Sequence record: PZ386948.1
From: a phage
Length of the DNA stretch: 64,000 bases
Reading direction: 5' to 3' (one strand)
Positions 4,371 to 41,429 of the stretch are shown in pieces. Both the position numbers and the translations under genes were made by a program. The notes under the pieces were generated by a model. It worked only from the letters and a program-made list of their open reading frames with translations, ran no database searches and had not been told where the DNA came from. The stretch's first letter is position 1. Every line of letters starts with the position of its first letter.

Positions 4371-4688
4371 TTAAGACGCTTGAATTTTACGTGTGTAAGC
4401 ATCAATCATATCCTCAATTTGCGATCTAGTAGTCTTCCAAAGAATACTGATGAGTTCATCGTTATATGGCTGTTTTAGAATATCCCGACTTTTCTTGATA
4501 GCATATTCGTATTGAGCAAAATTATTGTTTTCAGCTGCGATCTGAGCGTGCTTATAAAGACGATTCAGTTCGCGTTTGTTTTTAGACAATAACTTATTTG
4601 CTTTTCTTTCTGCTTCAAGACGGTTCTTTTCTTCAATAGAAGAAATAAGCTTTTCCACTTCATCATTAATTTCGGGTTTATCAGTCAT
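4371..4688 (-). CDS. Hypothetical protein (coiled-coil, charged)
   Basis: 105-aa ORF in the minus-strand early gene run. Confidence 0.5.
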   Translation of the reverse strand: MTDKPEINDEVEKLISSIEEKNRLEAERKANKLLSKNKRELNRLYKHAQIAAENNNFAQYEYAIKKSRDILKQPYNDELISILWKTTRSQIEDMIDAYTRKIQAS

Positions 4689-4689
4689 A

Positions 4690-4908
4690 TTATTTCTCTA
4701 ATATAAAATAAAAATCATCATCTGTTAAATGATACCTGTAATTTAATTCTACACCATTAGATTTAAAAGCGGTATCATACGGATTTTCTGGATCAATATC
4801 AATGTCAAGAGCTAAAACTTCCCTGAGATACATTTTAAGTAAATAGGGAATAGCTTCAACTTCAGGTATTTCTTCCAAGAATCCGGAGAGGTTAATCGTT
4901 AGCCTCAT
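4690..4908 (-). CDS. Hypothetical protein
   Basis: 72-aa ORF immediately downstream of gene 55. Confidence 0.5.
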
Positions 4909-18429: not shown

Positions 18430-19398
18430 TTATTTCAGAAGAGTAACCTCAGCGATTTCTTCCCAACCGTTTTTGTCGGTCATAATAAAGTCAGCAAGAT
18501 AAAGAGCAGTACGCAGTGAAACATTGCGTAAACGATTAACATTGACTTTCATCCATGATAATGCTTTATAAGTTTCTTCATCAGAAAGACCGCGCTTTTG
18601 CATCATGTCAGTTGAAAGAATAACATCTTCAACCCTGACCATAATTTCTTCATTAGTGTGAACACCCAAATCTAAATAAACTGAGCGGGACACTAATGCT
18701 TGTAAATGTGGAGCAAGTTTAGTACCACGGTCTAATTCGCGGTCAATATCAACGTTTGTGATAAAAACAATCGTTCCTTTAAATTCAAACTCACGCTCAA
18801 TGCCTTTTTCTTCTAAGTAAGAAGATGCAGTGCTCCAGCAGACTTTACGGGTCTCTCCGGTGTCCAGAGCAGCTTTCAGAAGATTAAGAATGTCCATATC
18901 AGAGAAAACATCCACATCATCAATCAAAAGGACAGAATTCTCTTCACGATTATTCCAAAGCTGTTCATAAAGACCGATACCAGAGATTTTACCATTAATG
19001 CTTTTATACTCAATGTATCCAATATCATTTGCTTTATTTAAAGCTTTATCTAAAGAATACGTTTTACCAATACCTGCTGCTCCCGAGATAATTAATGAAC
19101 GAATGTTTCCGTTAATAATACCATTCGTCATCATTCCCATAACATTAAATCTTTTATTAATGCGGGTTTTCATATCTTCATACGATTCTTTAACTTCTTC
19201 AACTTTTACACCATCATATGAAATGTCTGATTTGTAAACCCAAACACCGCGACGTTTACCGTCAATTTCAACAAAAACTTTACCATCTCCTTGTGCATCT
19301 ACCGGAGCATTATCTGGGAACCATTCGCCTAAGAGCTCAAAAGTTCCAGAGATTTCTTTACCGAAGTAGATACCCTTATTGATAGTTACAGTTTTCAT
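18430..19398 (-). CDS. AAA+/P-loop ATPase
   Basis: Walker A GAAGIGKT and Walker B VLLIDDVD; ATG at 19398 with GGAG RBS. Confidence 0.65.
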   Translation of the reverse strand: MKTVTINKGIYFGKEISGTFELLGEWFPDNAPVDAQGDGKVFVEIDGKRRGVWVYKSDISYDGVKVEEVKESYEDMKTRINKRFNVMGMMTNGIINGNIRSLIISGAAGIGKTYSLDKALNKANDIGYIEYKSINGKISGIGLYEQLWNNREENSVLLIDDVDVFSDMDILNLLKAALDTGETRKVCWSTASSYLEEKGIEREFEFKGTIVFITNVDIDRELDRGTKLAPHLQALVSRSVYLDLGVHTNEEIMVRVEDVILSTDMMQKRGLSDEETYKALSWMKVNVNRLRNVSLRTALYLADFIMTDKNGWEEIAEVTLLK

Positions 19399-19432
19399 TT
19401 TGTTCTCCAATTTCACATTTGTTTTGATAGGG

Positions 19433-19465
19433 TAATAATATCACACTACTACCCTGCTGTAAACA
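19433..19465 (-). promoter_or_regulatory. Early-promoter repeat
   Basis: GTTTAC (19459-19464), A/T -10, inverted repeat agggta/taccct around the -10. Confidence 0.5.
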
Positions 19466-19467
19466 AT

Positions 19468-35614: not shown

Positions 35615-35690
35615 TGGTCGAGGCAGTAGGGATCGAACCTACGACCTAGGACTTAGAAGGTCCTTGCTCTTCCTTCTGAGCTATGCCCCG
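35615..35690 (-). tRNA. tRNA-Arg (anticodon UCU)
   Basis: Manual cloverleaf: acceptor CGGGGCA/TGCCTCG, anticodon loop CTTCTAA, T-arm GTAGG-TTCGATC-CCTAC, 3' ACCA. Confidence 0.8.
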
Positions 35691-35694
35691 TAAT

Positions 35695-35781
35695 TGGGGT
35701 GACCGATGGGAGTCGAACCACCCGAGTCGCAATGACAATGGATTTACAGTCCACACCGCTACCTCTACGGGATAACTCCCC
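35695..35781 (-). tRNA. tRNA-Tyr(GUA)-like class II element, probably degenerate
   Basis: Canonical anticodon arm GTGGA-CTGTAAA-TCCAT, long variable arm, TTCGACT T-loop and 3' CCA, but acceptor and T stems pair poorly. Confidence 0.4.
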
Positions 35782-35794
35782 TTAATTCTTAATT

Positions 35795-35869
35795 TGGTGG
35801 CCCTGGGTGGAATTGAACCACCATCTGGCGATTATGAGTCGCTTGCTTGAACCTTCCAGCTACAGGGCC
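35795..35869 (-). tRNA. tRNA-Ile/Met (anticodon CAU)
   Basis: Acceptor GGCCCTG/CAGGGCC, anticodon loop CTCATAA, T-arm GGTGG-TTCAATT-CCACC, 3' ACCA. Confidence 0.75.
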
Positions 35870-35870
35870 T

Positions 35871-35946
35871 TGGTGCTGATTGACGGAATCGAACCGCCGA
35901 CCTTCTCATTACAAGTGAGTTGCTCTACCTACTGAGCTAAATCAGC
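35871..35946 (-). tRNA. tRNA-Thr (anticodon UGU)
   Basis: Acceptor GCTGATT/AATCAGC, anticodon loop CTTGTAA, T-loop GGTTCGATTCC, 3' ACCA. Confidence 0.8.
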
Positions 35947-35951
35947 AAAAC

Positions 35952-36041
35952 TGGCGGAGGCGATAGGATTTGAACCTATGAGTCGCCGGAGCGACTGCCG
36001 GTTTTCAAGACCGGTGCATTAAACCACTCTGCCACGCCTCC
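35952..36041 (-). tRNA. tRNA-Ser (anticodon UGA), class II
   Basis: 90 nt; acceptor GGAGGCG/CGCCTCC, anticodon loop CTTGAAA, long variable arm, T-loop GGTTCAAATCC, 3' GCCA. Confidence 0.8.
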
Positions 36042-36047
36042 AAATAT

Positions 36048-36698
36048 TTATATATTGTTAATTTGATTTAGAATTCTTTTTGCTTGAGTATGACTTACGC
36101 CAATATGCTTAGCATATTTAGACAATTCGCCACGTTTAGAAAAATCATATAATTTAGAAATTTCTATTCTTCTTTTTCTTTCATCCGCAGAAACTTTTGC
36201 TTCGTTTGCTTTTGCTATTTTACGTTTAGCTTCTTGAGAATGAGTTTTACCAGCAAAGCCATTCTTCATTAATCCATTTGAAGACCATCCTTTTAATTTT
36301 CCGTTAGAATGTGCCTTTTTAACACCCAATGAAATTAATTCGCGTTGCTGATCTGTCATAGGATAATTATTTATATGATCCCATCCACCTTCACCTCCAA
36401 GTTTTAAATTATACACATCTGGTCTATTTAAAAACTCTTCTGTGACAATATTTTTCTCGGCTTCAAGCATAGATTCTTTATCGTCAAAATACTCTAATAT
36501 TTCTTTAGAAAAATTTTCTATACCATATTTATCTTGGGCTCTTTTTAATAATTTACCAGAACCCATATATCCATCATCTAAATTTTCGGTAGAATGCACA
36601 CCAATATAAATTTTATTATTAATTTTATTTGTTATTTTATAAAGATAAAAATGCATATCAGTCCCTAATAAAGAACTGAGCGTCTCACGACGAGTCAT
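36048..36698 (-). CDS. segB: GIY-YIG homing endonuclease (SegB-like, within the tRNA cluster)
   Basis: 216 aa; N-terminal GIY-YIG module (YLYKITNKINNKIYIGVHST...GYMGSGKLLKRA); lies between tRNA genes as segB does in T4. Confidence 0.75.
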   Translation of the reverse strand: MTRRETLSSLLGTDMHFYLYKITNKINNKIYIGVHSTENLDDGYMGSGKLLKRAQDKYGIENFSKEILEYFDDKESMLEAEKNIVTEEFLNRPDVYNLKLGGEGGWDHINNYPMTDQQRELISLGVKKAHSNGKLKGWSSNGLMKNGFAGKTHSQEAKRKIAKANEAKVSADERKRRIEISKLYDFSKRGELSKYAKHIGVSHTQAKRILNQINNI

Positions 36699-36702
36699 AA
36701 AT

Positions 36703-36776
<74 letters not shown>

Positions 36777-36781
36777 AAATT

Positions 36782-36868
36782 TGGTGCGAGAAGTGGGACT
36801 CGAACCCACAAGGAAATCATTCCGCAGCATTTTAAGTGCTGTGCCTTTACCAATTTGACCATTCTCGC
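36782..36868 (-). tRNA. tRNA-Leu (anticodon UAA), class II
   Basis: 87 nt; acceptor GCGAGAA/TTCTCGC, anticodon stem-loop CAGCA-CTTAAAA-TGCTG, long variable arm, T-loop GGGTTCGAGTCCC, 3' ACCA. Confidence 0.8.
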
Positions 36869-36874
36869 GCTATA

Positions 36875-37507
36875 TTATTTATTACGTGAAAAAGACTGTT
36901 CTATCAATTCTGGACACTTTCGTTCTATCCATTTTCTAGCTTTTTGTGGGCTTATACCTATTATTTTAGCAGCTTTACTAACCCATCCAAATTTAGAATA
37001 ATCGATTTTAACTAATTCTTCGTAAATTTCATCAGTTAAAATCTTTTCATTAATATTTACCAGTAAATGATATAATTTATTATCATTAGCAATTTTAATG
37101 AATCTTTTATAGTTTCCGCCTTTACTTAAACCTAATGAAGTAATTGCAGATGATATAGTAGCCGAATTTAATAGTGCGTTTAAAATTTCTTCATCACTAA
37201 CATTATAACGCTTTTTATTATTTTTAATATTTTTACCAGCAAAAGTATCAGTTTGCGAATGGCAGTTTGGACATAATAATCTTAAATTTGATTTAAGATG
37301 ATTTTTGTTATTTCCATCAATATGGTCTAATTGCAGAACAATATGCTTATTTTGCCATTTTGAAATTTTACAAATTGCACACTCATATGGAAAAATATTT
37401 TCTTTTATTATTTTGTCTTTCAGCTTTCCTGTACTAAAATTTGGATGTTTTCCTTCAAAAATTTCAGCTAATTTAGTATCCATAATATGATTCCCAATTA
37501 TTAACAA
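36875..37507 (-). CDS. HNH homing endonuclease
   Basis: 210 aa; LQLDHIDGNNKNH...LRLLCPNCHSQTD (HNH with Zn-binding Cys); stop abuts tRNA-Leu. Confidence 0.75.
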   Translation of the reverse strand: MLIIGNHIMDTKLAEIFEGKHPNFSTGKLKDKIIKENIFPYECAICKISKWQNKHIVLQLDHIDGNNKNHLKSNLRLLCPNCHSQTDTFAGKNIKNNKKRYNVSDEEILNALLNSATISSAITSLGLSKGGNYKRFIKIANDNKLYHLLVNINEKILTDEIYEELVKIDYSKFGWVSKAAKIIGISPQKARKWIERKCPELIEQSFSRNK

Positions 37508-38098: not shown

Positions 38099-38388
38099 TT
38101 GCTCACCATATTAATGTAAGTATATTCAATACATTCAAGACCCAAAGGATTCTTGAAAATATCATATTCAAGAGGACCTTTTTCTGTTTCAATAAAGAAA
38201 TCAAAATTTACTGTATTAAATTTACGGTCTTCCTTCACTAATTTAACCTGAGAAGATGAACGGTCAATGTAAACCTTTTCAACTTCAAAACATGTTAAAA
38301 CGCCATAATCATCAATCAAGGCTTTAGCCGCGTCTTGATCATATTTATATCCATTTTCAATTGACGATACTTTAGCATAAAGAATCAT
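38095..38388 (-). CDS. Hypothetical protein
   Basis: 97-aa ORF. Confidence 0.5.
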   Translation of the reverse strand: MILYAKVSSIENGYKYDQDAAKALIDDYGVLTCFEVEKVYIDRSSSQVKLVKEDRKFNTVNFDFFIETEKGPLEYDIFKNPLGLECIEYTYINMVSK

Positions 38389-38390
38389 TA

Positions 38391-38771
38391 TCAGCCTTCA
38401 TCAACAATAGTATGAGTGTGGGCATTTACAATTTGCCACCAATCAAAGCGATTAGAACCACACATCGGTTTGTTTTCATTTTCTTTGATAATATCACGAA
38501 GTTCATCTTCGGTAGCGGCTTTCGCGATTAAATCAGCATATCCACCGCGAGGATAATAATTATCACCTGCAAAAAGTAAAAAGTTCGGTTTAATATTATT
38601 GAACTCTTCAAGAGTAATAACTTTTCCTGTCGGTTGAACAATCTCTACATATTTATATCCTAATTTTTGAGCAGCATCTACTGCTTCAAGCAAAGTATCA
38701 TGAGCCCATCCAATTTGACAACCTGGCTTTTCAGATGGATTAGCCTGATAATCCGCGTACACTTTATACAT
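38391..38771 (-). CDS. Hypothetical protein
   Basis: ATG at 38771 (MYKVYADYQ...); track start is further upstream. Confidence 0.5.
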   Translation of the reverse strand: MYKVYADYQANPSEKPGCQIGWAHDTLLEAVDAAQKLGYKYVEIVQPTGKVITLEEFNNIKPNFLLFAGDNYYPRGGYADLIAKAATEDELRDIIKENENKPMCGSNRFDWWQIVNAHTHTIVDEG

Positions 38772-38772
38772 T

Positions 38773-38958
38773 CTATTCACCTTTAGAAATTTTATCCATA
38801 ACGATAGCAATTAAACCAATTAAAAATGCTACTACAAGTGAAAAAACATTTTCTGCTGTAGTTAATAATCCGCATATAAATCCAACAAACATTGAAAAAC
38901 TAAAAGCAGAAGCAGAAATTGCAATAGCAACATTTCGAATTAATTCACAACGTTTCAT
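38773..38958 (-). CDS. Small membrane protein (two TM helices)
   Basis: ATG at 38958 (MKRCELIRNVAIAISASAFSFSMFVGFICGLL...); track extension is promoter sequence. Confidence 0.45.
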   Translation of the reverse strand: MKRCELIRNVAIAISASAFSFSMFVGFICGLLTTAENVFSLVVAFLIGLIAIVMDKISKGE

Positions 38959-38984
38959 TTTATTCTCCTCAGTAGCTGATAGGG

Positions 38985-39018
38985 TAATAGTATCACTACT
39001 AAAACCCAATGTAAACAA
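38985..39018 (-). promoter_or_regulatory. Early-promoter repeat (IP-array type)
   Basis: GTTTAC (39011-39016), 18-bp spacer, TACTAT; shares about 50 bp with copies at 39279, 39645 and 39975. Confidence 0.55.
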
Positions 39019-39019
39019 T

Positions 39020-39244
39020 TTATTCAACGCCAGCGGCTTTCAAAAGTTTCTTAAGATTGGCAACACCTTGAGCAGAAAATGTGACCTTGCCACCTTTTTC
39101 ACTGATAGAACCAACCAATTTAGCAAGTTTATCATTAGGAATTTTTTTAAAATCAGCCAATGTTCCATCAAAGGTTTTTGAAACAAAAGGCAGTTCGTCT
39201 TCGCGTCTTTTAGCTTCTACAATAAATTCTTGATATGTTTTCAT
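39020..39244 (-). CDS. Internal-protein-like protein (capsid-targeting sequence MKTYQEF)
   Basis: ATG at 39244 with RBS; N-terminus MKTYQEFIVEAKR resembles the T4 IP targeting sequence. Confidence 0.6.
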   Translation of the reverse strand: MKTYQEFIVEAKRREDELPFVSKTFDGTLADFKKIPNDKLAKLVGSISEKGGKVTFSAQGVANLKKLLKAAGVE

Positions 39245-39278
39245 TTTAGTTTCCATTTGAGTGTTTGTTTTGATAGGG

Positions 39279-39312
39279 TAATAGTATCACTACTAAAACC
39301 CAATGTAAACAA
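39279..39312 (-). promoter_or_regulatory. Early-promoter repeat (IP-array type)
   Basis: GTTTAC (39305-39310), 18-bp spacer, TACTAT (39281-39286). Confidence 0.55.
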
Positions 39313-39328
39313 CTTTGTGAAAAATTTA

Positions 39329-39616
39329 TTACAAAAGATTTTTAGCAATAATCTTGAGATGTGCCGCAGAAATGTGTTTAGCTTTAAACAACGCAGTTTC
39401 TTCAGCAGGAGAGATAACGATTGTAGCACCATCCTTTTTAGCAGACCACCCATCGCCTAGGTAAACAGTACCTTTGATTTCTTCGCCATCAACCAGACTA
39501 ATCATTGGTTTACCTTCTCGTCCTTTATTTGCTTTAATAACTTCAGAAGTAAGAGTAGCTTCGGTAATAGTAGAAACCGGGGTAGTTGTAGAAGTAAATT
39601 CTTTGAAAGTTTTCAT
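39329..39616 (-). CDS. ipI: Internal protein I-like
   Basis: 95 aa; N-terminal MKTFKEF targeting sequence with a likely ITE|A cleavage site; position next to 57B as ipI in T4. Confidence 0.65.
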   Translation of the reverse strand: MKTFKEFTSTTTPVSTITEATLTSEVIKANKGREGKPMISLVDGEEIKGTVYLGDGWSAKKDGATIVISPAEETALFKAKHISAAHLKIIAKNLL

Positions 39617-39644
39617 TTTATTTTCCTAATTAATTTTGATAGGG

Positions 39645-39678
39645 TAATAGTATCACAACTAAAACCCTATGTAAACAA
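39645..39678 (-). promoter_or_regulatory. Early-promoter repeat (IP-array type)
   Basis: GTTTAC (39671-39676), TACTAT (39647-39652), flanked by inverted repeat ataggg/ccctat. Confidence 0.55.
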
Positions 39679-39688
39679 CTTTGTGAAA

Positions 39689-39946
39689 TTATTTTAAATC
39701 TTCTAATCGTTTCTTCATCTTAGAACCGTTCTTAGCGATTTCGCCTGCATCAGAGCATAATGCTAAAAGCGCTTTAACTTTAGTTTGGTCTCCTTTAAAA
39801 GATGAAGGATCAACAGCAGCAGCAAGTTCTTTAATACGAGAGAAAAGACGCTCAGCTTCAGCTAAAGCCATTCCAAGCTTTACTTCCATACCGCGGGAAG
39901 ATTCAGTAATAGTAGTTTTTGTAGCAAACTCTTTGAAAGTTTTCAT
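39689..39946 (-). CDS. Internal-protein-like protein (MKTFKEF)
   Basis: 85 aa; first ~7 codons and upstream leader near-identical to the ipI-like gene. Confidence 0.6.
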   Translation of the reverse strand: MKTFKEFATKTTITESSRGMEVKLGMALAEAERLFSRIKELAAAVDPSSFKGDQTKVKALLALCSDAGEIAKNGSKMKKRLEDLK

Positions 39947-39974
39947 TTTATTTTCCTAATTAATTTTGATGAGG

Positions 39975-40008
39975 TAATAGTATCACTACCTCATCAGTAT
40001 GTAAACAA
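39975..40008 (-). promoter_or_regulatory. Early-promoter repeat (IP-array type)
   Basis: GTTTAC (40001-40006), TACTAT (39977-39982), flanked by perfect 9-bp inverted repeat gatgaggta/tacctcatc. Confidence 0.55.
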
Positions 40009-40018
40009 CTTTGTGAAA

Positions 40019-40703
<685 letters not shown>

Positions 40704-40704
<1 letters not shown>

Positions 40705-41429
40705 TATAGTACCTTTAGTGTATTTTTAATTTTAGAAAAAAGTTCTTCAAGAGAACCATCGTTTGTAATTACTAAATCGCCATCACGAATTGGCAATCCA
40801 GCTTCTGTAATATGTGTATCATTGGATTTTTGACCAGGACGAACTACATGAATTACTGTAGCACCCATCGCCCTAGCCGCATCCATTTCATGATCTTGAC
40901 GGGTATCAGGAACGATATAATAATCATAACCTGAGTTAAATTTATCAAGATAATCTAAAGCAAATAATTTTACCCAGTACATGCGGTCGAAGTTATTAAC
41001 AATCAAATCCGTACCTAGGGCTTGCATCAGACGACGGACTGACCATTGATCTTCAATATTATTTATAACGTCAATAATCTTGTTAAATGCTACGGAATTA
41101 ACTGATTCTTGTCCTTCGTCATCAAAAACAAACACACCCTTAATTGGGCTTTTACCGTTAAGATAGCAAAATGCTTGTTCCATAATCGTGATTACTTCTG
41201 ATTTAGTCAGATTTAAATTAGTCTCACGATCATAGTCAATTCCTTCAAACTCTTTACGAGTTAAGCAAGGATAGTCAGTGTTTGCTGCAAATACTCCCCA
41301 TGCATAAGCCAATGCATCCTTAATAGGACCAGCAAGTTGGTATTTAACTGCAGAATAATTGCTCATGATAAAATCAGCAGTAGTATCTTTTCCACTACGC
41401 TTTACACCGCTTAAAAAGATTAGTTTCAT
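40704..41429 (-). CDS. 1: Deoxynucleoside monophosphate kinase gp1
   Basis: 241 aa from ATG at 41429 with GGAG RBS; MKLIFLSGVKRSGKDTTADF P-loop. Confidence 0.9.

Follow-up and report, generated by a model that had tools for sequence, protein, structure and literature searches.

The window analysed here is a stretch of 64,000 nucleotides of phage DNA (sequence record PZ386948.1). On its minus strand three small genes are clustered between gene 57B and a trna.4-like gene, and a copy of the same promoter block is found at each gene boundary. The features are, from the upstream to the downstream end of the cluster:

40019..40477, minus strand: gene 57B, Acb1-family (Pfam Acb1, 7.5e-60; named 57B in CM8, RB14 and T4)
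39947..40018, minus strand: block 4, the 57B-to-Ip5 intergenic cassette (promoter 39977-40006; arms 39967-39976 and 39987-39996)
39689..39946, minus strand: Ip5 internal head protein gene, 85 aa (phrog_3499, 1.2e-48; Ip5 in GenBank for CM8 and RB14)
39617..39688, minus strand: block 3, the Ip5-to-IpI intergenic cassette (promoter 39647-39676; arms 39639-39645 and 39664-39670)
39329..39616, minus strand: ipI, 95 aa, the IPI* precursor (identity to PDB 2JUB; Pfam PF11634, 7.3e-54)
39245..39328, minus strand: block 2, the IpI-to-Ip8 intergenic cassette (promoter 39281-39310; stem 39276-39279 and 39298-39301)
39020..39244, minus strand: Ip8 internal virion protein gene, 74 aa (phrog_8765, 2e-25; Ip8 in GenBank for CM8)
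38959..39019, minus strand: block 1, the Ip8-to-trna.4 intergenic cassette (promoter 38987-39016; stem 38982-38985 and 39004-39007)
38773..38958, minus strand: trna.4-like small membrane protein gene (phrog_1692, 6e-35)

Gene 57B and the trna.4-like ORF, the latter with the position and the start of T4 trna.4, are the conserved flanks of the IP locus on its upstream and downstream side, respectively.

The three ORFs that had been read as starting with MKT(F/Y)(K/Q)EF were all found on the minus strand, and the original prediction that they encode internal proteins was borne out by several lines of evidence. Shigella phage CM8 has the same sequence over 38700-40231 (100% identity), and its GenBank annotation names the genes Ip8, IpI and Ip5. 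Residues 20-95 of IpI are 100% identical to mature T4 IPI* (PDB 2JUB), and this middle protein matches Pfam IPI_T4 (7e-54). The three internal proteins match PHROGs 8765, 4363 and 3499, those of Ip5 and Ip8 being 'internal virion/head protein' families, and a Pfam search gave no family match for Ip5 or Ip8. The N-termini, MKTYQEFIVE in Ip8, MKTFKEFTST in IpI and MKTFKEFATK in Ip5, all have an aromatic residue at position 4 (Y or F) and at position 7 (F), and are of the capsid-targeting sequence (CTS) type of T4-type internal proteins. The CTS has been described as resembling MKTYQEFIAE with positions 4 and 7 as the key residues (PMC9026906), and MKTFKEF is the predicted CTS of Ip5. An (I/L)-x-E motif for the gp21 prohead protease is present as IVE at residue 10 in Ip8, ITE at 19 in IpI and ITE at 15 in Ip5. 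The mature IpI of the solved structure begins at residue 20, right after this ITE, and for Ip8 cleavage is predicted to occur after E10.

The genes are homologous to named Ip families and, as in T4 and RB14, are located between 57B and trna.4. The locus is the hypervariable 'IP1' locus of a Tequatrovirus (T4-like phage). According to later papers that cite it, the report by Repoila, Tetart, Bouet and Krisch (1994, EMBO J 13:4181) describes Ip genes of the T-even IP1 locus with a conserved leader, flanked by conserved promoter-containing intercistronic blocks. The likeness to our locus lies in the 57B-trna.4 position, the conserved N-terminal leader and the repeated intergenic blocks. The gene names IpI, Ip5 and Ip8 are used in GenBank relatives and the middle gene is T4 ipI itself; we found nothing substantive that sets the locus apart, although the combination Ip5-IpI-Ip8 is uncommon. 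The locus is real, was correctly read from the sequence and is already known, as it was described in 1994 and in 2010-2014. A scan of the window for the CTS pattern did not reveal a second IP locus (ipII/ipIII type). When viral contigs were scanned for the CTS-codon pattern mostly unrelated AT-rich contigs were retrieved, and the T4-like ones alone were informative.

A repeat search showed four copies of a 45-nt unit, with 98, 93 and 78% identity to the reference copy. A repeated GTTTAC-N18-TACTAT block had been predicted in three copies; the block itself stands while the count does not, as the fourth copy, preceding the trna.4-like ORF, lies within the very segment that had been read. The block is equivalent to TTTACA-N17-TACTAT with a TG-extended -10, and in a promoter scan the four sites each score 9/12 with the TG and are all on the gene strand. 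A block pattern with 24 specified bases had four exact matches at the locus and one match with two mismatches at 19431-19466, as compared to 0.00 matches in 100 shuffles, which places the block count far above chance. The T4 early promoter has been described as 'UP/-35/TGn/-10' (PMC2988021), and all four blocks have GTTTAC(A), a 17-nt spacer, TGn, a TAnnAT -10 and an A/T-rich stretch upstream (AAAATAATTTCACAAAGTT).

Comparison of blocks 3 and 4 showed 24/25 identical positions upstream of the -35. Within the promoter 23/30 positions are identical, and all 7 differences fall in the 5' arm of an inverted repeat. From the -10 to codon 10 the identity is 55/62; two of the differing positions lie in the 3' arm and the others in codons 6-10, which agrees with the earlier remark that the leader and first codons of IpI and Ip5 are nearly identical. 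In their intergenic sequence the two blocks differ almost exclusively in the stem arms, where a change in one arm is compensated in the other. Starting ~19 nt ahead of the -35 and running across the hairpin arms as far as the Shine-Dalgarno, block 4 is identical to the T4 sequence upstream of ipI; in the T4 57B-to-ipI block an additional A stands in front of the ATG. All four blocks are strong T4 early promoters, each with an inverted repeat lying over it whose arms flank the -10.

In block 4 the arms are TGATGAGGTA and TACCTCATCA (plus strand, 39967-39976/39987-39996) and embrace GTGATACTAT, and in block 3 they are ATAGGGT and ACCCTAT (plus strand, 39639-39645/39664-39670), with an inner TAGT/ACTA pairing with the -10. 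Copies 1 and 2 have a weaker inverted repeat than copies 3 and 4, consisting of a GGGT/ACCC stem and an inner TAGTA/TACTA, the latter located at 39282-39286/39291-39295 in block 2. As sense-strand RNA the MFE was -13.2 kcal/mol for block 1 (z -1.56), -16.9 for block 2 (z -2.61), -15.9 for block 3 (z -2.66) and -17.4 for block 4 (z -3.35). Rfam gave 0 matches at E <= 1 over 38300-40800. The original prediction saw covarying inverted repeats in the copies at 39645 and 39975. Both repeats are real and complementary; the covariation within the window did not hold, since the stems of blocks 3 and 4 occupy different registers relative to the -10 and cannot be compared column by column. True covariation appears only once related phages are added.

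Among related phages, inverted repeats are conserved in the homologous promoters, where the stems that embrace or overlap the -10 of IP-locus promoters have ~14 different sequences. The hairpin register varies among the relatives, and the same point of the block is always straddled. No single consensus structure accounts for all IP-locus promoters, as their stems are spread over at least four registers, and we instead used a half-swap permutation test together with two register-specific alignments. For 20 cluster representatives the native mean MFE was -9.43 vs. -5.85 +/- 0.53 after permuting the 3' halves, and the native value was reached by 0 of 20000 permutations. In the register-specific alignments, for which the registers were assigned to sequences by the analyst in a way that favours the tested structures, double-sided changes were seen in 8 of 12 pairs in one register and 4 of 13 in the other. 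The corresponding covariation scores were 0.322 and 0.187, as compared to 0.202 and 0.080 for shuffled alignments (0/500) and at most 0.142 and 0.104 when the alignments were slid. An alignment of promoter copies, proposed earlier as a way to quantify covariation, did therefore show it with the relatives included. As swapping of the 3' halves destroys the fold, and ~14 different stems are found at this position, these comparisons support that the promoter hairpin is kept by selection, in agreement with the original suggestion of a selected hairpin. The hairpin is not essential, given that chimeras whose stems are broken occur in nature.

The same data bear on what the inverted repeat may be. 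One of the options first put forward was an operator, at which a dimeric phage or host regulator would shut off the early promoters, and the dyad symmetry does have its centre at the -10, so that a protein bound there would keep RNA polymerase out. We find this extremely improbable, as the arms are wholly different between copies and phages (GATGAGGTA, ATAGGGT, AGGTCTATAG, GATGGGATAA, AGGGCTAT) with the complementarity kept, and the register relative to the -10 shifts. Divergent arms with kept complementarity are the signature of a nucleic-acid helix and not of a protein-recognition site, and the operator reading was rejected on this covariation evidence.

Strong hairpins (MFE <= -8) were found at 23 of 29 IP-locus promoters vs. 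37 of 176 other early promoters (Fisher p = 2e-9), i.e. an odds ratio of 14-fold in the same phages. Such an enrichment is difficult to reconcile with functionless palindromes that arise as by-products of quasi-palindrome correction, where intrastrand template switching produces perfect arms without selection. T4 is the classic system for quasi-palindrome-templated mutation, and the many perfect stems with few intermediates as well as the persistence of broken chimeras in nature would fit such an origin. On the other hand, the stems also persist at the same place in lineages with 57B proteins only 74-85% identical, and altogether we judge a functionless origin to be very unlikely.

A hairpin under selection at an early promoter recalls the PeSL elements (Arbiol et al. 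2010, PMC2839356; Comeau et al. 2014, PMC4122927), which likewise combine an early promoter and a stem-loop in intergenic, hyperplastic regions. At the IP locus the early promoter and a stable stem-loop (MFE -13 to -17 kcal/mol) lie in one repeated intergenic element between co-directional genes and, as at PeSLs, insertions, deletions and replacements between close relatives are associated with these elements. A stem-loop over the -10 is a described PeSL subclass (PMC2839356), and the PST/T4 PeSL consensus TTTACW-N17-TAYWAT (PMC4122927) fits the TTTACA-N17-TACTAT of our blocks. The PST stem-loops are placed just upstream of the promoter (PMC4122927, figure 3 legend), whereas the stems here embrace the -10. 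The PeSLs of RB49 and phi1 have a perfect sigma-70 consensus (TTGACA/TATAAT) and G-run/C-run stems, one of which was shown to terminate. The IP-locus blocks differ from these in having the T4 early-promoter consensus (-35 GTTTAC, -10 TACTAT) and weaker, AT-richer stems without U-tracts. As they are not homologous to the RB49/phi1 elements, we class the blocks with the T-even IP-locus elements of Repoila 1994 and regard them as PeSL-like in the way they work. This is in line with the description of PeSL-like elements on T4 early promoters of T-even IP loci as 'analogues', not homologues (PMC2839356), and the blocks are the T-even analogue of the published PeSL elements.

In T4, ipI RNA is classed as early and the upstream 57B and 57A as middle, and the IP proteins accumulate late (PMC9697503 supplement). 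The only late promoter-like motif nearby is TATAAATA, upstream in gene 1 (41060-41067), and a motif scan found no late promoter motif within the IP intergenic regions, so late expression probably needs read-through past the hairpins. This speaks against the hairpins being efficient rho-independent terminators that would make each IP gene a strictly monocistronic early unit. Terminators of this kind (WebGeSTer, TransTermHP) are marked in the GenBank record of SA21RB over the early promoters on both sides of ipI, and an RB49-type PeSL stem-loop was as strong a terminator as rrnB T1 in a lacZ reporter (PMC2839356). The stems here are rich in A and T and, as Arbiol et al. also remark (PMC2839356), weaker than the RB49 stems, and a terminator scan gave no site at any of the four blocks. 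Instead of the G+C-rich hairpin and following U run of an intrinsic terminator, the tails after the hairpins (CAAAAUUAAUU, CAAAACAAAC, CAGCUACUG) are A-rich and have no U-tract, and a U-rich tail is found on neither strand. The missing U-tract makes efficient intrinsic termination doubtful, and strictly monocistronic units seem unlikely to us. A literature search on T4 transcription start or terminator mapping that mentions ipI gave nothing useful.

As a U-tract is missing, our best guess is that the hairpin acts as an attenuator or a 3'-end barrier in read-through RNA. The promoter would fire immediately after infection, for which the early class of T4 ipI RNA, with the same block but for one A, gives indirect support, and its own transcript, starting inside or after the 3' arm, would not contain the hairpin. 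A complete hairpin would form only in read-through RNA, initiated at the previous block or at TATAAATA of gene 1, where it may attenuate transcription and/or be a barrier to 3'-exonucleases, thereby insulating each cassette. A 3' stabiliser/terminator of the upstream transcript was the second option first put forward, and such a reading has also been favoured for PeSL elements (PMC2839356).

Compared to T4, two insertions and no others are present in the window, at 39620-39948 and at 38976-39269. Each consists of one gene and one block, is one repeat period long and has its ends in blocks. Chimeric blocks are found in RB14 and in three further relatives (L011, L017 and L130), and CM8 carries a tandem duplication; the insertions and the natural chimeras agree well with the cassette shuffling proposed earlier. 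Ip5, IpI and Ip8 are each a self-contained cassette of leader, gene and repeated regulatory block. The near-identical stretches of ~45-120 nt, present at all gene boundaries, would offer homology to the very active recombination of T4, which could insert, delete, duplicate and swap IP cassettes, and such swapping would let the phage adapt to hosts that differ in their type IV (GmrSD-type) restriction enzymes. We consider this account as a whole, with the IP1 locus, the promoter/hairpin cassettes, the hairpin role in read-through RNA and the recombination-driven swapping, to be probable.

Possibly, the inverted repeats act instead as DNA, as extruded hairpins or cruciforms or as template-switch substrates at replication or recombination intermediates, so that breakage and rejoining are targeted to the cassette boundaries, e.g. 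by a structure-specific nuclease, in an integron-like array possibly involving mini-circles. The ends of the insertions, of the duplication and of the chimeras do fall inside the blocks, the shifting register still straddles the same block point, and there is no termination U-tract. In addition, PeSL mini-circles were detected in RB49/phi1 and site-specific exchange was raised (PMC2839356, PMC4122927). Homologous recombination across 45-120 nt repeats would, however, give the same junctions without any hairpin, and selection for evolvability alone is a weak force for keeping ~14 stems intact. In only 12 of the 20 representatives did the sense strand have a better fold than the antisense. Interior mismatches of intact stems are G.U over A.C by ~6 to 1 on the sense strand (G.T in the DNA), which, although the events are few and non-independent, is more in keeping with a single-stranded sense molecule than with a symmetric cruciform. 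A role at the DNA level is in our opinion improbable, and its furthest form is quite doubtful, namely that the hairpins are structure-specific recombination sites, the IP locus being an integron-like exchanger without integrase from which IP genes are excised as small circles and re-inserted at structure-compatible blocks, with arm compensation kept for cassette mobility.

By analogy only, the cassettes resemble those with integron attC sites in having small promoter-proximal adaptive genes, imperfect inverted repeats and a structure conserved over sequence. Unlike integrons, the IP locus has no integrase, no evidence of site-specific recombination and one promoter per cassette, and homologous recombination between the IP-locus repeats is sufficient.

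Returning to cassette swapping by homologous recombination, its significance lies in what the genes encode. Internal proteins are injected together with the phage DNA to disarm the type IV restriction enzymes of the host, and a different GmrSD is blocked by each of Ip1, Ip2 and Ip3 (PMC12373910). IPI* is injected and inhibits GmrS/GmrD, a type IV restriction enzyme (PMC3012670). Of the three products here, it is only for the middle one, through its identity to T4 IPI, that occurrence of the processed form in virions and its injection are established. The IpI of our locus is identical to this characterised inhibitor (PMC3012670; PMC12373910). For Ip5 and Ip8, which have no Pfam match, the likeness to IPI* consists of the capsid-targeting leader and the locus. 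The cassette architecture explains the quick swapping of counter-defence genes in T4-like phages, and IP swapping bears on host range and on the choice of phages for therapy; none of this is new. Among 775 matching phage records the query coverage was at least 80% in 12, and all three genes were present only in T4_ev240 and CM8.

The window genome is a Tequatrovirus (T4-like) and the locus is the IP1 hypervariable locus of T-even phages. Sequence comparison showed 100% identity of Shigella phage CM8 to window 38700-40231 and 97.8% identity of Escherichia phage T4_ev240 to 38769-40500. The genes lie in the following transcription order:

Genes of the locus
40474-40704, minus strand: 57A
40019-40477, minus strand: 57B, matching Pfam Acb1
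39689-39946, minus strand: Ip5 ORF, N-terminus MKTFKEFATK
39329-39616, minus strand: IpI ORF (middle), N-terminus MKTFKEFTST
39020-39244, minus strand: Ip8 ORF, N-terminus MKTYQEFIVE
38773-38958, minus strand: trna.4-like membrane protein, downstream of the three small ORFs
thereafter, minus strand: trna.3- and trna.2-like ORFs, then the tRNA cluster

57B, directly 5' of the internal-protein (IP) cassettes, matches Acb1 (anti-CBASS) at 7.5e-60, and thus two kinds of counter-defence gene adjoin here. The tRNA cluster (Arg, Met, Thr, Ser / Gly, Leu; 35615-37507, minus strand) is split and flanked by homing-endonuclease-like ORFs at 36048-36698 and 36875-37507, the latter an HNH endonuclease in the CM8 annotation.

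All three small ORFs with MKT(F/Y)(K/Q)EF-type starts were found where the original prediction had placed them, and their assignment as internal proteins was supported. The middle ORF is 100% identical over residues 20-95 to mature T4 IPI*, whose structure is solved (PDB 2JUB), and matches Pfam IPI_T4 at 7e-54; as the mature N-terminus is known, this confirms cleavage of IpI after ITE at residue 19. The outer ORFs match PHROG 'internal virion/head protein' families, are named Ip8 and Ip5 in the CM8 and RB14 annotation, and both have aromatic residues at positions 4 and 7 plus an I-x-E motif, the determinants of targeting and processing (PMC9026906). Ip8 also has an in-frame upstream ATG (39244-39256, minus strand) giving METKMKTYQEF, a feature shared by relatives (METKMKTF, MEIKMKTY); because this ATG falls within the Shine-Dalgarno-like TGGAAAC, translation likely begins at 39244 and MKT stays N-terminal.

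The motif GTTTAC-N18-TACTAT (equal to TTTACA-N17-TACTAT, with TG before) is present on the gene strand at 39977-40006, 39647-39676 and 39281-39310. The predicted promoter block was thus found before all three IP genes, while the copy number had to be corrected to four, as another motif (38987-39016) precedes trna.4. A repeat search returned a 45-nt unit in four copies (98, 93 and 78% identity to the reference), and a 123-nt repeat is shared at 88% identity by 39582-39704 and 39912-40034. A block pattern of 24 fixed bases gave four exact matches in the locus, 0 in 100 shuffles, and one further match with 2 mismatches at 19431-19466. Each block carries a strong early-promoter consensus. Block 4, ahead of Ip5, has its match in the T4 57B-to-ipI block; block 3, ahead of IpI, resembles the T4 ipI-to-trna.4 block. 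Promoter activity is supported indirectly: T4 ipI, which has the same block in front of it, yields RNA of the early class, and the RNAs of 57B and 57A further upstream are of the middle class (PMC9697503 supplement).

The -10 of the fifth copy (19431-19466, minus strand) is enclosed by a stem of its own, AGGGTAGTA/TATTACCCT (-12.9 kcal/mol), and the copy drives an ORF of ~322 aa (18430-19416, minus strand; P-loop motif GAAGIGKTY) and no IP gene, so the cassette is not confined to the IP locus. Conversely, several more distant relatives (stretches L006, L015, L017, L019, L021 and L022 (~3956)) have no promoter block ahead of the first IP gene, whose ATG comes at the 57B stop (..TAAAATG). Some IP genes are likewise coupled to the IP gene before them (gaaTAAAATG), so that some can do without the cassette promoter.

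On the sense strand the four blocks fold into a hairpin centred on GTGA/TACTAT (-13.2, -16.9, -15.9 and -17.4 kcal/mol; z-scores -1.6 to -3.4). Blocks 3 and 4 agree at 24/25 positions upstream of the -35 and at 23/30 in the promoter, where the seven mismatches all fall in the 5' arm. Between the -10 and codon 10 they share 55/62 positions; two of the changes there are in the 3' arm and the others in codons 6-10. The intergenic differences are hence limited to the arms and are complementary, as predicted. Covariation had been read as a sign of a selected hairpin; selection was upheld by the comparative tests below, but column-wise covariation inside the window was not, since the two stems are in different registers and one replaces the other stem for stem.

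The comparison covered 25 loci around 57B homologues and additional T4-like stretches from pattern scans. In these relatives ~14 unrelated stem sequences embrace or overlap the -10 upstream of IP genes and trna.4:

Stem pairs at the -10 (others besides)
TGATGAGGTA/TACCTCATCA; GATAGGGTA/TACCCTATC
AGGTCTATAG/CTATAGACCT; GATGGGATAA/TTATCCCATC
AGGGCTAT/ATAGCCCT; AGGGTTAT/ATAACCCT
ATAGGGT/ACCCTAT; GGGCT/AGCCC; TAGTGT/ACACTA
AGGGTGTAGT/ACTATACCCT; TATAATACCACA/TGTGGTATTATA

The inverted repeats are thus conserved as structure in homologous promoters. An operator around the -10 is an unlikely explanation, because the arm sequences differ between copies yet their complementarity is kept. In a half-swap test, sequences were anchored on the -10, reduced to 20 cluster representatives and their 3' halves permuted; mean MFE was -9.43 kcal/mol for native pairs vs -5.85 +/- 0.53 for permuted ones, and 0/20000 reached the native value. 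Two register-specific alignments showed both-sided changes at 8/12 and 4/13 pairs, with covariation scores above all 500 shuffles and every slid control; the registers were assigned by the analyst, which favours the tested structures, a weakness the half-swap test is free of. Finally, strong hairpins occur in 23/29 distinct IP-locus promoters vs 37/176 other early promoters (Fisher p = 2e-9), and among ~18 minus-strand early-promoter-like sites in the window only the four blocks and the 19435 copy fall below -11 kcal/mol. Taken together, the three tests (half-swap, register alignments, enrichment) support selection on the structure.

The conserved helix overlaps the early promoter. The start of transcription would lie within the 3' arm, ~7 nt after TACTAT; only RNA reading through from upstream would therefore contain the full hairpin, which may there work as an attenuator, as a block to 3'-exonucleases or as both, insulating each cassette. 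On whether the helix matters in RNA or in DNA the evidence is mixed: on the sense strand, G.U outnumbers A.C by ~6 to 1 among interior wobble pairs, but in no more than 12/20 representatives is the sense-strand fold the better of the two strands. We doubt that the hairpins are efficient intrinsic terminators, as none of the four blocks has a U-tract following the hairpin and late IP synthesis probably needs read-through: IP proteins accumulate late (PMC9697503 supplement) and the only late promoter-like site nearby, TATAAATA (41060-41067), is upstream, in gene 1. The trna.4 leader (38959-38975) has the Shine-Dalgarno GAGGAG, with GGAG within, and the three IP leaders (39617-39640, 39947-39970, 39245-39262) have AGGAAA or TGGAAAC, without GGAG. 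T4 RegB cuts early mRNAs at GGAG, and the lack of this motif in the IP leaders would fit IP mRNAs having to stay translatable late.

The finding is real and was read correctly, but it is already known, having been both annotated in sequence records and published as a concept. Repoila et al. (1994), as cited in later papers, identified at least ten Ip genes by signal sequence. Arbiol et al. (PMC2839356) defined promoter-early stem-loop elements (PeSLs), counted a stem-loop over the -10 among their most frequent layouts, and demonstrated that RB49-type elements act as promoter and terminator. Homology is the sole defining feature of these that the blocks here lack, and the T-even elements are, in the original authors' own wording, analogues of PeSLs (PMC2839356). 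The PST/T4 PeSL promoter consensus is TTTACW-N17-TAYWAT (Comeau et al., PMC4122927), and in the SA21RB GenBank record terminators and early promoters are annotated as overlapping on either side of ipI.

The proposed cassette shuffling was also substantiated, with cassette-sized insertions and deletions. Global alignment with T4 gave three blocks (97.7-98.5% identity), between which lie exactly two window insertions, each one repeat period long:

Insertions relative to T4
39620-39948: Ip5 plus one block
38976-39269: Ip8 plus one block

Chimeras in RB14, L011, L017 and L130 combine a 5' arm of one block type with a 3' arm of another, and CM8 has a tandem duplication of truncated 57B'-Ip5-IpI that is absent from the otherwise identical window. 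Exchange thus occurs inside the blocks. The CM8 duplication (L001, NC_054939, 3490-4721, compared with window 39329-40477) has its junction just past an Ip8-type leader (..caaaacaaacactca|gtacttgtgc..) and is either a real cassette recombination product or an assembly artefact. Natural chimeric or slipped blocks (L017 ~4677-4760, L002 ~2325, L011 ~4245, L130 ~3490) fit an exchange within the loop or the -10. In some natural chimeric blocks the differing arm types leave a broken hairpin, and in L017 the '-10 plus 3' arm' is tandemly duplicated (gatactattacctcatcaa, twice).
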